A stretch of DNA of 64,000 bases, from positions 17,237 to 81,236 of the forward strand of contig CAYIKZ010000001.1 in NCBI GenBank assembly GCA_964364285.1, given 5' to 3'. The notes beneath the pieces are model-generated. The model did not search any database. It was not told the origin of the DNA and worked only from the letters and a program-made list of their open reading frames with translations. The translations under genes and the position numbers were made by a program. Source of the DNA: an uncultured Candidatus Saccharibacteria bacterium (GTDB lineage: Bacteria > Patescibacteriota > Doudnabacteria > UBA920 > VMFF01). Of this stretch, positions 34,513 to 41,082 are shown one piece after another (the stretch's first letter is position 1; every line of letters starts with the position of its first letter).

Positions 34513-36147
34513 ATGGAAATACCTCATTACAAAAAAATAGTTCTTCTGGTGTTGGATGGTTTTGGTGTTGCTTCTAAATCAAGAGGAAATGCCATTTCTC
34601 AAGCAAACCCAGCGCACTTAAACAACCTACTCGCAAATTATCCAGCAATAACCTTACAGGCATCAGGACCTTTGGTTGGTTTGCCTTGGGGTGAAATGGG
34701 GAACTCAGAGGTTGGACATTTAAATATCGGAGCAGGAAGAATCGTTGCTCAAGACTTGCCTCGTATTACAGCAAGCATTCAAAGTGGAGAGTTTTTTAAA
34801 AATCCAGTGTTCTCAAAAGCATGCGAGCATGTTAAGAAAAACAACTCAAAATTGCATCTTCTTGGAATGGTCAGCCCAGGTGGAGTTCATAGTTATGACG
34901 AACACCTTTATGCGCTGCTTGGTTTAGCCGCAGAGCAGGGTATTCAAAACACATATATTCACATGATTACAGATGGAAGAGACACAGAACAAAAAGTTGC
35001 TCTAGCAAGTCTTGAAAAGCTACATAACAAAGTTGCTCAGATTGGTGTTGGAAAAATTGCGACAATTTGTGGAAGATTCTATGCAATGGACAGAGGCGGG
35101 CATTGGCAGCAAACAGAAATGGCATATCAAGCAATGGTAAATGGTGTGGGAGAGAAATCAATCAGTCCAATGGAAGCAGTAGCTACAAATTATGTTAAAG
35201 GTATATTTGATGAAATGATTAAACCAACCATCATCACAGAAGGTGATAGACCTGTTGCGAAAATTGAAAATAATGATGCTGTAATATTCTTTAACTTTAG
35301 ACAAGACCGTGCAATGCAGTTAACAGTTGCTTTTGTTGCTCCTGAAAAAATGGAGATACCACAAAAACATCAACCTTTAGAAAACCTTTGCTTTGTAACA
35401 ATGACCTCATATATGCCGGATCTGAAAGCAGATGTTGCTTATGGACCAATTGAGATTGACAATGACATTGCAAGCTTAATTTCTAAAGCAGGATTAAAAC
35501 AATTCCATGCTGCAGAGAGCGAAAAGTTTGCACACGTCACATCGTTTTTCAATGGTGGAAAAATGGATCCTCTTCCAGGAGAAGAGAGAAGTATAATTTC
35601 AAGCCCTGATAACACAAGCAACTATTCAGATAGACCAGAAATGTCTGTTGCAAAACTTACTGACACCTTAGTAGATCGTATAAATCACGGGGATGATAGT
35701 TTTTATGTCGTGAACTTTGCTAATGCGGATATGGTAGGACACACTGGAAACTTAAACTCAGCAATCGACGCTATTAAAGCAATTGATGAAGAGATTGGTA
35801 AAATTGCGGCCGCAATTTTACCACTGCAAGGAGCTTTGATAATCACAGCAGATCATGGCAATGCTGAATTGATGATAAATAACAACACAGGGGAGATAAA
35901 TAAGGACCACACAACATCCCCAGTCCCCTTTGTTTTGATTGCTAATGAATTTAAAAGATCAAAACCAGAGCAGATAGACTACGACACGCTCGCTGGTCTT
36001 ATGCCAGAAGGAGCGCTTTCAGATATTGCACCAACGATTCTTGAACTCTTTGGAATACCAAAACCAGAACAGATGACAGGAATTAGCTTGATTCCTGTTT
36101 TAGAAGAAGAGATTTTGAAAAAAGTTAGTAACATGTTAGGGAGTTAA
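34513..36147 (+). CDS. gpmI: 2,3-bisphosphoglycerate-independent phosphoglycerate mutase
   Basis: iPGM motifs (LVLDGFG, SEVGHLNIGAGR, ITADHGN). Confidence 0.92.
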   Translation: MEIPHYKKIVLLVLDGFGVASKSRGNAISQANPAHLNNLLANYPAITLQASGPLVGLPWGEMGNSEVGHLNIGAGRIVAQDLPRITASIQSGEFFKNPVFSKACEHVKKNNSKLHLLGMVSPGGVHSYDEHLYALLGLAAEQGIQNTYIHMITDGRDTEQKVALASLEKLHNKVAQIGVGKIATICGRFYAMDRGGHWQQTEMAYQAMVNGVGEKSISPMEAVATNYVKGIFDEMIKPTIITEGDRPVAKIENNDAVIFFNFRQDRAMQLTVAFVAPEKMEIPQKHQPLENLCFVTMTSYMPDLKADVAYGPIEIDNDIASLISKAGLKQFHAAESEKFAHVTSFFNGGKMDPLPGEERSIISSPDNTSNYSDRPEMSVAKLTDTLVDRINHGDDSFYVVNFANADMVGHTGNLNSAIDAIKAIDEEIGKIAAAILPLQGALIITADHGNAELMINNNTGEINKDHTTSPVPFVLIANEFKRSKPEQIDYDTLAGLMPEGALSDIAPTILELFGIPKPEQMTGISLIPVLEEEILKKVSNMLGS

Positions 36148-36255
36148 GCTGGGCTCATGGTTTTAGGTATAGATTTATGTCTATGCTTGGAACTCTTAGC
36201 TCACAGAGAGCAGAGTATTTCGGTTTAGACTCGGCAACCTTGAGGAGGATTTACG

Positions 36256-36846
36256 ATGACACTCGCGGTTTCGTCTGATGTTCCGTCTTCGCACGGGTCA
36301 GTAAAGGTTTGCCATCTTGGACTGGTTCGGCATGAGGCATTGGAGCCAAGGCTTGAAGGACTCACACCGCTTCATGCCGCCGTTCTGGCTGATGCCTGTG
36401 AGGAATACCGAGACGCTTTCGACTTGCTGACGACTCGGTTCCTCGCTGAGCGCATTATCCCAGCGGCGATCGAAGACTGCAAGTTCAAGATCGTTGCTGG
36501 GTCGTCCAATCTGCAGTATGCGGATTTTCCCATCAACGAGCAGTCACTCGACGACGTGGGTCTAGCTCCAAACGGTATTCTCCGTTCGGTTCATCAGATT
36601 CTCGAGGAGTATCCGCTTGAAGCCTTTGCCTCTCCATTGACAGCGTTGCGCTACGCTGCGAGGTACCCAGAAGTTTACATGGTCGCTCCAATCAACGTGC
36701 TGTTCGCGGCCATGGGCAAGCTATGGGGCATGACCTTTCTGAATTGGCAGGGTTTGCACAAGATGATTGTGCGCCAGTTCTTCCTCGAAGCCCGGTTCGC
36801 TACTGGAGAGCGTTTCCTTGTTCTCCGACGTGGTCGTTTGCGCTGA
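36256..36846 (+). CDS. hypothetical protein (196 aa) encoded in GC-rich island C
   Basis: ATG preceded by GAGGAGGA with a 6-nt spacer. About 58% GC. Followed by hairpin terminator CCGCGTTT...AAACGCGG. No recognisable family. Confidence 0.55.
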   Translation: MTLAVSSDVPSSHGSVKVCHLGLVRHEALEPRLEGLTPLHAAVLADACEEYRDAFDLLTTRFLAERIIPAAIEDCKFKIVAGSSNLQYADFPINEQSLDDVGLAPNGILRSVHQILEEYPLEAFASPLTALRYAARYPEVYMVAPINVLFAAMGKLWGMTFLNWQGLHKMIVRQFFLEARFATGERFLVLRRGRLR

Positions 36847-36940
36847 TGTCATCAAGATTCTGGGCCTTGTGCCCGAAGCTGGAGCCGCGTTTTGTTTGTC
36901 GAAACGCGGTTCTGCCTTTTCTAAAAACAATCTTTTGTTA

Positions 36941-39066: not shown

Positions 39067-39192
39067 TATTATTCCATTATGATTTCTAATCAATTACAAG
39101 CAGTAAATAACGGAATGCCAAAGTTTTGGTATAACTTTACATACTCCAGGGTTGTTTCGCTGCGGTAATTTTCTAATTCCTTTTTAAAAGAT

Positions 39193-39216
39193 TATCCCAG
39201 CGAGCCAACGCTGGGA
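39193..39216 (+). terminator. terminator/attenuator hairpin upstream of the island D gene
   Basis: ATCCCAGCG-AGCCAA-CGCTGGGAT plus T-run (TTTTTGTTTTT). Confidence 0.5.
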
Positions 39217-39277
39217 TTTTTGTTTTTGGTTCGGCGCACTTGGGACGCAATCTCAAGACCCAATTGGAGGATTGACA

Positions 39278-39682
39278 ATGCTTTCACGTAGCGAAGAAGG
39301 GCAGCTTGGTCGTTTCTGGGGCGTGGTGTTCACCCACATCGATGAGCTTGGGGTCATGTATCGTAACCGCAGGGGCAAGGATCGTCGGCACTACAGTGAT
39401 TTTGACGTATACGAGAGCGTAGAGTTTCCTTGCGGTTGCAAGCCGCGGTCTGGTCAGAGCAGGCGCTTCCGTCTTTACGAAGACGGTGCGCTGGTCCATC
39501 ACGGATGCTCGGTGGTTTTCGTAGGTCATGACAAGGAGGGGAAGCTCAAGCAGTCGATGCTTCAGAGGGCGATCTGGACCAAGAGGTCAATCGTTTTACA
39601 GCGCGTAACAAAGCCTAGCAAGCCATCACCGCGTGTTCCGCTCTACGGACCTTACGGAAGTCCGTACTTCGTGCGTCGTTGA
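39278..39682 (+). CDS. hypothetical protein (134 aa) encoded in GC-rich island D
   Basis: GGAGG 7 nt upstream of the ATG. About 57% GC. Possible Cys/His cluster (CGC...HHGC). Confidence 0.5.
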   Translation: MLSRSEEGQLGRFWGVVFTHIDELGVMYRNRRGKDRRHYSDFDVYESVEFPCGCKPRSGQSRRFRLYEDGALVHHGCSVVFVGHDKEGKLKQSMLQRAIWTKRSIVLQRVTKPSKPSPRVPLYGPYGSPYFVRR

Positions 39683-39700
39683 AGCACAGAACAAACAACA

Positions 39701-39740
39701 ATGGTCTTAAGTCTCCCTTAGTCGGGAACTTAAGACCTTG
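39701..39740. terminator. bidirectional terminator between island D and the convergent PEGA-domain gene
   Basis: 10-bp stem GGTCTTAAGT/ACTTAAGACC flanked by A/T-rich runs. Confidence 0.55.
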
Positions 39741-39744
39741 TTTG

Positions 39745-41082
39745 TTATCTAACCTTTAATAAACTAACTGTCTCGTTGTTTAACAAGAAAATTGTTTTTG
39801 CGTCAGAATCAATGTAGAATTTAGCTTCTTTGTTTAATTCTGCAAAAGTATAATTGTTTTGATAGTCCCTGGTGTCTAATTCAATGGCTTGTAAGTGGTT
39901 GTCATTTTTGAAAAATACCCAACCAACTTGGCTGTTTCCTGAAATGTTTGATATTTCTTTAAGTGATCTTGTAATTAGTTTTGTTTCTCTGCTAGCCATG
40001 TTGTATCTGTCTATCTCATTTCCAGTGTTAAAGAAAACATCTTCATTGTTTTCAATCTGAACTTCTTCAACGTGTTCAACGATTTTTTCAAGCTCGTCAT
40101 TTAAAACATACAACGTCTTGTTTCCTAAAACAAAGAGTTGGTTGTTTTCCGTTAGATATATTTGTGCATCAACAAACGGAGGAATATTTTCAAGCAAAAT
40201 TGTTTCAGTGTAGTTTGGCATGCTTGCATGAGCCAATGATCTTCTGATACCCAGAAGAGATTCTGCGAGTTTGATATAATATATTCCAGAAGAGTTTACT
40301 TCAAATGCCAGCACGTTATCCACTACAACCTCTTTTTCGTTTTTGTTCCAATCAAGAATATATATTGAACCTTCTAGAAGCTGATACAGTTTGTTGTCTG
40401 GTGAGAACTTAAAGGTATTTTCTGATGCTTGGAATGATGTTTTTGATGAAAAAGCAGCTTGTTTTGTGGTTAATTCAGTAATATCTGTTAGCGTATTGTT
40501 TCTAGTATCTAAAACAAAGTTGTTAACCCCACTGTTTATTAAAAAGAAGTTTTCATCAGGACTTGAAAGGATTTTTCCTGCTTTGATGTTCTCTTTAAAA
40601 TTAACAGAGGTTTGTTTTTCAGGACTACTGATATCTGCAAAACTTATTTTATCTTGTTGAAGGTAGGCAATTCTTTTTTCTCCAGCAAAGAAATCTAAAG
40701 CATTTTCAGAGAGCGTTTGCTTTTCTGCGTTTGAGTAGAAAAGAAAAAGGTTGTCCGTACTTTCAAAGTTCCAAGTAACAAACTGTGATCTGACAGTTAA
40801 ACGTTTGTTCCAGTCAAAGTACCCTTGTTTTTTGATGCTTAGTTCATAATTACCTGGTTCTAAGAATCTAATGTTTTGGTTTGTTGTGCCGTGTGTTGAA
40901 CCATTAATTGTTATGCCAGCGTTCTTTGGCTCTGTCTTGATGCCTAAGATTCCGGTTTTAACAAAACGGCCATTTTTAAAGTCGTACTTTTTGCCACTGA
41001 CAAAAAGTACAATAAAAGGGGTTAAGATTATGAAAGCGAGGATTCCGCTAGCAATTAAAGAGTACCTTGGACGTGATTTCAT
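39745..41082 (-). CDS. membrane-anchored PEGA-domain protein
   Basis: N-terminal TM. PEGA-like segment GITINGSTHGTTNQNIRFLEPGNYELSIKKQGYFDWNKRLTV. Long N/S/T-rich extracytoplasmic region. Confidence 0.55.
   Translation of the reverse strand: MKSRPRYSLIASGILAFIILTPFIVLFVSGKKYDFKNGRFVKTGILGIKTEPKNAGITINGSTHGTTNQNIRFLEPGNYELSIKKQGYFDWNKRLTVRSQFVTWNFESTDNLFLFYSNAEKQTLSENALDFFAGEKRIAYLQQDKISFADISSPEKQTSVNFKENIKAGKILSSPDENFFLINSGVNNFVLDTRNNTLTDITELTTKQAAFSSKTSFQASENTFKFSPDNKLYQLLEGSIYILDWNKNEKEVVVDNVLAFEVNSSGIYYIKLAESLLGIRRSLAHASMPNYTETILLENIPPFVDAQIYLTENNQLFVLGNKTLYVLNDELEKIVEHVEEVQIENNEDVFFNTGNEIDRYNMASRETKLITRSLKEISNISGNSQVGWVFFKNDNHLQAIELDTRDYQNNYTFAELNKEAKFYIDSDAKTIFLLNNETVSLLKVR

Follow-up and report, generated by a model that had tools for sequence, protein, structure and literature searches.

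Two high-GC ORFs in the 64-kb stretch of DNA analyzed here (the window) are each preceded by one copy of a homologous segment of ~110 nt. On balance, we consider it reasonably probable that this segment is a transcribed, cis-acting leader of the variable-protein mRNAs of diversity-generating retroelements (DGRs), possibly bistable, which sets the translation and/or the stability of these messages. The window belongs to a Patescibacteria chromosome of low GC (38%) in which short islands reach 52–53%, and the two ORFs belong to the islands referred to here as C and E. Judged from their homologues, both are variable-protein (target) genes of DGRs. The leaders of C and E are homologous, share a conserved core, and fold in a strand-specific manner around a long hairpin that covaries. 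The core takes part in two pairings that compete with one another.

The leader of island E (5′ UTR; 60632–60747, + strand) scores 109.5 bits with covariance model R1 (E = 6.6e-23), and that of island C (36148–36255, +) scores 91.5 bits (E = 8.8e-19); both fold. Further copies in the window were not detected with R1, islands A and D are without the leader, and the antisense matches of the model are mirror images of the hairpin. Alignment of leaders C and E gave a mean column identity of 74%, with the likeness extending back into the promoter region. A sequence-only reading of the window had reported a common motif in both leaders, with GGGCT about 40 nt ahead of it and GGAGGA and an ATG behind it, and exact searches bore this out. 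The motif reads ACTCTTAGCTCAC-AGA-GAGCAGAGTAT in C (36192–36218, +) and ACTCTTAGCTCAC-CAAC-GAGCAGAGTAT in E (60674–60701, +), where it holds an invariant central strand, CUUAGCUCA, together with the downstream partner of that strand. Across the whole window, zero-mismatch copies of the 13-mer ACTCTTAGCTCAC are found only at 36192–36204 and 60674–60686, and those of the 11-mer GAGCAGAGTAT only at 36208–36218 and 60691–60701. GGGCT stands 41 nt before the motif in C (36151) and 39 nt before it in E (60635). GGAGGA, the ribosome-binding site (SD), lies at 36244–36249 in C and 60734–60739 in E, followed by the start codons at 36256 and 60748, respectively. Two details of that reading required correction. 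The core present in both islands comprises 24 identical positions (13 + 11) rather than 27, in two halves separated by 3 (C) or 4 (E) variable bases. The loops do differ as had been stated, but with a GCTC/GAGC stem the C loop is ACAGA (ACCAAC in E) and not ACAGAGA.

Outside the window, at least seven other Patescibacteria assemblies have the same leader in the corresponding place (compared loci carry L numbers below). A 21-base version of the motif was searched against 596 Gb of species-representative genomes and returned five matches, all of them in Patescibacteria MAGs and upstream of homologous high-GC ORFs. The corresponding scan of metagenomes returned six matches, four of the same kind and two (L006 and L010) that are copies of one unrelated AT-rich sequence; the flanks of these two are without homology and they were set aside as chance. 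No match was returned from viral contigs. Apart from the two AT-rich copies, both the genome and the metagenome scans thus match only homologous loci, and chance is excluded as the origin of the motif. Among the loci, L002 represents locus C in a sister genome, on a contig that also has L005, a variant of E. Two more, L017 and L018, were reached via homologues of the E protein and so independently of the motif. Both carry the invariant CTTAGCTCA, the 3′ half of their leader reads GAGCTTAGCCAT, and they occupy the same syntenic site as E (serS ... pyrH, a small ORF, the E gene, then PMT_2). With Rfam 15, only a tRNA-Leu passes the gathering scores in the whole window, and neither leader has a meaningful match at E values up to 10.

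In E and in seven other loci, the leader lies on the sense strand between a promoter and the SD and start codon. The promoter of island E is of the sigma-70 type (60591–60619, +; TTGACA, 17-nt spacer, TATGAT) and agrees with the consensus at 11 of 12 positions in a promoter scan, and TTGACA/TAnnnT promoters are found at equal distance in L001, L003, L004, L005, L007, L017, and L018. The C copy has no such promoter. No consensus promoter was found for it in the promoter scan, and the leader begins right after the gpmI stop codon (36145–36147). As a side observation, gpmI is nine codons longer in the window than in L007 (window 36113–36147) and overruns the C-gene terminator and promoter of L003 and L007; only a degenerate TTGAAA...TAGGGA is left upstream of C. 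Read-through from gpmI may account for expression of the C gene. Terminator-like sites were not found inside either leader; the sequence directly after the small hairpin is AUCC or AUUUCGG.

Although the RecJ proteins of these genomes are only 57–59% identical to one another, CTTAGCTCA is invariant in the nine distinct leaders of our alignment (A3); seven of the nine were found with the motif itself, so the apparent conservation of the core is inflated. Compared with the sister genome, the window is 91.4% identical in the E leader and 91–96% identical in the flanking genes, while the E ORF has 60–65% nucleotide and 56% amino-acid identity over its whole length. When 60748–61389 of the window is compared with 2737–3378 of L005, the break falls exactly at the start codon, and the N-terminal domain is the most divergent part. 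The region after the E ORF differs by indels. Either an allele replacement or a very fast evolution of the whole gene would be the cause of this divergence. The C leader is 100% identical in the sister genome, and the C island overall is 99–100% identical. Together with the homology of the two leaders, their constraint had been anticipated from the sequence, and both hold.

RNAalifold was run on A3 and predicts a series of hairpins without a multi-helix junction: a helix P1 (UGGGCU:AGCUCA), a 16-pair hairpin P2, a short hairpin P3, and a four-pair helix P4 between AUCC and GGAU of the SD. In the E leader, P1 pairs GUGGGCUA (60633–60640) with UAGCUCAC (60679–60686) and encloses P2 (60643–60676); a downstream strand, GAGCAGAGUAU, follows at 60691–60701 and P3 (AUCCUUCAGGGGAU) at 60701–60714. 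In the C leader, P1 pairs UGGGCU (36150–36155) with AGCUCA (36198–36203), P2 occupies 36159–36194, and the downstream strand GAGCAGAGUAU occupies 36208–36218. Of these elements, P2 has six pairs with compensatory changes on both sides and about 91–93% of its cells paired. Its covariation score is 0.349, against 0.240 in shuffled alignments, and none of 500 shuffles reaches 0.349; once the partners are slid against each other, pairing drops to 31–51%. P1 never varies and is therefore neither supported nor contradicted by covariation, and the SD helix P4 has no compensatory change. Mean fold energies are −27.0 kcal/mol for the sense strand and −15.4 kcal/mol for the antisense strand, a gap that is due to the many G-U pairs. 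Such strand-specific folding speaks for an element that acts as RNA, not one that acts as DNA.

The earlier proposal of a conserved structural module is upheld in that P2 covaries and folding favors the sense strand. The helix that it had singled out, a small hairpin formed by the two halves of the motif, is not the helix backed by covariation, a place that belongs to the long hairpin P2. The covariation score observed for the small hairpin is reached in 209 of 500 shuffles. In L017 and L018, its outer helix is broken or re-registered, and the hairpin exists in a different register only, where one new G-C pair arises through a U-to-G change and an inserted C. The small hairpin and P1 both use AGCUC and consequently cannot coexist; the two compete for the invariant strand CUUAGCUCA. 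In constrained folding, the P1 form ranges from 0.4 kcal/mol less stable to 8.4 kcal/mol more stable than the hairpin form, and the gap is 1.2 kcal/mol or less in four of the nine leaders. In L017 and L018, both competing helices lengthen together.

On the 3′ side of the leader, the 5′ arm of P3 resembles an anti-SD (AUCCUUC versus GGAGGAU). Inspection turned up no persuasive pairing between the downstream strand GAGCAGAGUA and the SD or the start region, nor a clear one that would link the switch to the SD. Pairing of the leader in trans with the 5′ part of the template-repeat (TR) RNA was also evaluated in L001, L004, and L012, with duplex energies no better than those of shuffles (p = 0.17, 0.62, and 0.16, respectively). 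Short words shared by the leader and the TR 5′ region (GGCUAAG and GCAGAGUAU) were treated as coincidence.

More distant leaders of the E family have another sequence and the same outline, namely a strong promoter, 110–140 nt with a long hairpin, and GGAGGATG(CT)GACG..ATG. Several of these leaders offer the 3′ strand of the basal helix an alternative partner, which lies just downstream and is a repeat of the 5′ strand. One example is AUUGAG / CUCAAU / AUUGAG in L024 and L025. Another, read by eye, is UGCGGC / GUCGCA / UGCGGC in L012; L026 and L020 have analogous CG-rich strands. L013 has no third strand. A shuffle test of the three strands, which were assigned manually, gave a combined Fisher p = 2.6e-5, driven by L026 and L020, with most single p values above 0.05 and L012 mis-specified. 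The recurrence of this three-strand plan is suggestive of a leader in which both pairings matter, i.e., one with two states.

The assignment of C and E to DGRs comes from their homologues, where the adenine signature of pairs of template and variable repeats (TR/VR), Avd, and the reverse transcriptase (RT) mark both as DGR variable-protein genes. The E ORF (60748–61389, +; 213 aa, with an in-frame ATG also at 60739) has 52 homologues, all unnamed Patescibacteria proteins, and a VR-like segment at roughly 61260–61380. In its predicted model, the VR is carried by a C-terminal fold that is C-type-lectin-like. The C ORF (36256–36846, +; 196 aa) represents a second family of DGR variable proteins. 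It occupies the interval from gpmI to recJ, where the homologues in L003 and L007 are found too. Alignment A5 of the C family has FASPLTALRYA in common and a variable C-terminus. The ORFs of C, E, and D have no Pfam, NCBIfam, or PHROGs family. In L012, which holds an E homologue, bAvd and RVT_1 genes lie downstream of the target, and the last 130 nt of the target (VR, 3497–3626) are repeated 478 nt downstream (TR, 3975–4104) with 82% identity; 21 of the 23 TR–VR mismatches fall at TR adenines. The motif-bearing locus L004, with a target of the C family, has a TR of 86% identity and 15 of 16 mismatches at TR adenines, and in L001, which is motif-bearing with a third type of target, the count is 17 of 18; Avd and RT are adjacent in both. 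For L027, 21 of 27 TR–VR mismatches are at TR adenines.

A GC-rich hairpin also follows the targets. A 16-bp inverted repeat with a TTCG loop lies downstream of the E VR (61413–61448, +), with homologous hairpins behind the target genes of L005, L012, and L001. A 15-bp hairpin lies downstream of ORF C (36880–36914, +) and is kept in L003 and L007. Each may be a DGR target hairpin or a terminator. The proposal that islands C and E are copies of one element type can therefore be retained in the sense that both are DGR variable-protein genes with their own promoter or leader and a 3′ GC-rich hairpin. The paralogy of the ORFs that it implied is not demonstrable, as the C and E proteins have no detectable similarity to one another (BLASTP E = 1.2; hhalign probability 27%).

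RT and Avd are absent from the window by tblastn, and neither a TR nor any other repeat of the 3′ end of either ORF was found within its 64 kb. In the sister genome, a DGR RT (MEK7651721.1; P0060/P0175), 72% identical to the RT of L004, is encoded by the contig that also has E′ (MEK7651628.1) and C (MEK7651652.1), ~69 genes beyond C as judged from accession order. With no RT, Avd, or TR in the window and the sister RT far from C, genes C and E appear to be remote targets or orphan (former) targets; a TR for them would be sited beyond the window, close to the RT. In the VR of E, some non-adenine positions depart from the family pattern.

The unusual composition of the islands extends over the whole target ORFs and not over the VR alone. 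Such ORFs (window 36256–36846, 60748–61389, 39272–39682, and 2415–2759; L001 5224–5850; L004 3118–3693; L012 3001–3627) are 52–59% GC and adenine-poor on the sense strand, with third-codon A at 0.07–0.17 as compared to 0.37–0.39 in three host genes (gpmI, serS, and pyrH). In composition, RT and avd from these cassettes are host-like. Horizontal transfer was considered as a source of the high GC and rejected, given the host-like RT and avd and the synteny of the islands across genomes. The composition suggests a gene-wide loss or avoidance of adenine in target ORFs. Two more islands are likewise high in GC and poor in adenine: island D (39176–39745; an ORF of 136 aa, +) and island A (2304–2791; an ORF of 114 aa, −). 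The ORF of A has no NCBIfam or PHROGs family, the two collections scanned for it. Island D, which like A is without the leader, shares only the SD/start context GGAGGATTGACAATG and has its own 7-bp hairpin and 3′ terminator. Both A and D may be further DGR-related genes.

Several other features of these cassettes were recorded. The stop-codon context of E, CACTAGCTCACGG (61384–61396), repeats an 8-mer of the leader core, TAGCTCAC, and the 5′ strand GUGGGCUA could in principle pair with either the leader core or this stop-codon site. The homologues of E have only TAGCT or TAGTT at the stop context, and the repeat may be a coincidence. In three cassettes, avd is on the strand opposite to target, TR, and RT and lies between TR and RT (L001 4411–4788, L004 2257–2631, L012 4102–4539), so a transcript running from TR towards RT would be antisense to avd. 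Shortly before the RT start, these three cassettes have a homopolymer of G8 to G11, which falls within the 5′ end of the opposed avd (L001 4422–4430, L004 2256–2264, L012 4491–4498), and a G tract is likewise present at the 5′ end of avd in L025 (2235–2245, at the contig end). This tract is a candidate slipped-strand on/off switch of the retroelement. Lastly, ~220 nt between the target terminator and the TR are conserved in cassettes that are distant from one another (L001 2880–3097 and L004 4985–5230, both reverse-complemented; L012 3745–3974; L027 925–1135), with their own −10 box, GCGGCyAAGGCUUCAG, CAGAGUrUUU...AGAUACUYGG, and UAUUGGCGG..CCCAAAUAAAAUACA. This region probably represents the structured 5′ portion of the DGR template RNA.

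In the mechanism we envisage for the leader, P1 (UGGGCU:AGCUCA) would close the long AU-rich hairpin P2 in one state. In the other, the strand GAGCAGAGUAU would displace the 5′ strand and form the small hairpin with the central strand CUUAGCUCA. The third hairpin, with its anti-SD-like 5′ arm and SD-mimic arm, and the weak SD helix could then affect translation. RNase III might also cleave the long P2 duplex, upon which the central strand would refold onto its downstream partner as a 5′-terminal hairpin. In this manner, dispersed targets of one retroelement would come under common control. That the two states interconvert, that a trigger drives them, and that the outcome is regulatory is what we infer. 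A stronger version is possible, if doubtful. A dedicated bistable DGR RNA switch would tie dispersed target genes (here C and E, which are tens of kb away from the RT) to a single signal or to a factor encoded by the retroelement, and the retroelement would shape the whole target transcript past the leader and not the VR alone. Gene-wide adenine depletion and the divergence of the E ORF from its start codon onward would mean the latter.

Four other explanations of the leader were weighed. Closest to the sequence-only reading is the view that the small hairpin (ACUCU-UA-GCUC-loop-GAGC-AGAGU) is itself the functional unit, for example as a site of protein binding or RNase processing. C and E carry this hairpin in identical form; it folds on its own at −10.1 to −10.4 kcal/mol, and is the minimum-energy form in the C leader of the window and in L004; a hairpin at this place is kept in L017 and L018. 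We nonetheless regard it as unlikely, given the covariation result and the broken outer helix in L017/L018 described above, a z-score of only −1.3 for the isolated C hairpin, and the preference of RNAalifold for P1, which draws on the same AGCUC and is transcribed first. An element acting at the level of DNA, whether a 5′ homology arm or recombination site for the swapping of cassettes or a repressor operator, seems quite unlikely. The core is an inverted repeat, and an E ORF of 60–65% identity between flanks of 91–96%, with its break at the junction of leader and ORF, does look like allele replacement. Strand-specific, G-U-rich folding and a P2 covariation that keeps RNA pairing are at odds with this, and the leader element lies ~50–80 nt downstream of the promoter and not over it. 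Both C and E are at fixed syntenic sites in several genomes, the window holds no other leader copies, and no repeat pair, of recombinase type or otherwise, bounds the islands; the DNA recombination site suggested earlier is accordingly not upheld. The other two roles named there, processing site and regulatory hairpin, may apply.

Neither the absence of an Rfam match at E = 10, nor the lack of a multi-helix junction, nor the narrow distribution of the leader is what would be expected of a metabolite or ion riboswitch or an RNA thermometer. Leader architecture and sequence also turn over fast between sub-clades of one gene family, unlike ligand pockets. This reading, to which the mutually exclusive helices, the anti-SD-like arm, and the weak SD helix would lend the layout of an expression platform, is very unlikely in our estimation. 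Least probable, and by our judgment highly improbable, is a neutral relic of gene duplication with no function of its own. C and E might stem from one duplicated target, and fast-evolving ORFs could make a leader of ordinary rate stand out. A relic of this kind is difficult to square with a core that is invariant across lineages with recJ at 57–59%, with the compensatory changes in P2, or with an E leader that is conserved like the neighboring coding genes.

The preferred reading, a transcribed and possibly bistable leader, has counterparts among known RNAs. Bacterial mRNA leaders with mutually exclusive helices include attenuators, riboswitch expression platforms, and thermometers that sequester the SD. 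Like these, the leader has a central strand with one possible partner on either side, beyond which come an anti-SD-like arm and the SD, in a position between promoter and start codon; it differs in having no terminator after the alternative hairpin, no aptamer-like junction, and no Rfam match. Long hairpins in 5′ leaders that are processed by RNase III change mRNA stability or translation. P2, a duplex of 16–24 bp, mostly AU and G-U, near the 5′ end, is of RNase III size, and the likeness is a structural analogy only. Integron attC-like sites do not fit, as the leader element is 5′ of the ORF and within the transcribed leader, with no matching repeat at the 3′ boundary or elsewhere in the window.

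Among DGRs, those of CPR bacteria are cellular "clade 2" elements with targets that lack recognizable domains (PMC8144416). Such targets are, like C and E, small and cytoplasmic-looking, without a Pfam or transmembrane domain, and with a C-terminal VR on a C-type-lectin-like fold (PMC8144416). They are further alike in the adenine-specific TR/VR mismatches (here in homologues), the GC-rich hairpin after the VR, and an RT elsewhere in the genome (here in that of the sister). The present finding differs from them in that it concerns a 5′ leader and not the VR, in a window without RT, Avd, or TR. Conserved non-coding structures on DGR targets are also represented by the IMH and the GC-rich hairpin/cruciform downstream of the VR (PMC3240598, PMC5758913). 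Those elements are 3′ of the VR and act on DNA in retrohoming, whereas the leader is 5′ of the ORF, ~600 nt from the VR, folds only on the sense strand, and has the look of an mRNA element. DGRs and CPR targets are thus already known, while a conserved structured leader on DGR targets is absent from Rfam 15. In the titles and abstracts of the literature searched, and in the DGR papers as far as they were queried, no leader on DGR targets is described.

DGRs are very common in Patescibacteria, and the function and expression of their small, domain-less targets are hardly known (PMC8144416). The assignment of C and E to this class explains the puzzling high-GC islands of a low-GC genome as DGR target genes. 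A leader common to unrelated target families gives an entry point into how DGR targets are regulated, and a defined RNA for which a protein or ligand partner can be sought. It also provides a signature in sequence and structure for remote or orphan DGR targets that are missed by TR/VR searches. If the bistable switch holds true, DGR target genes would have their first associated RNA regulatory element.
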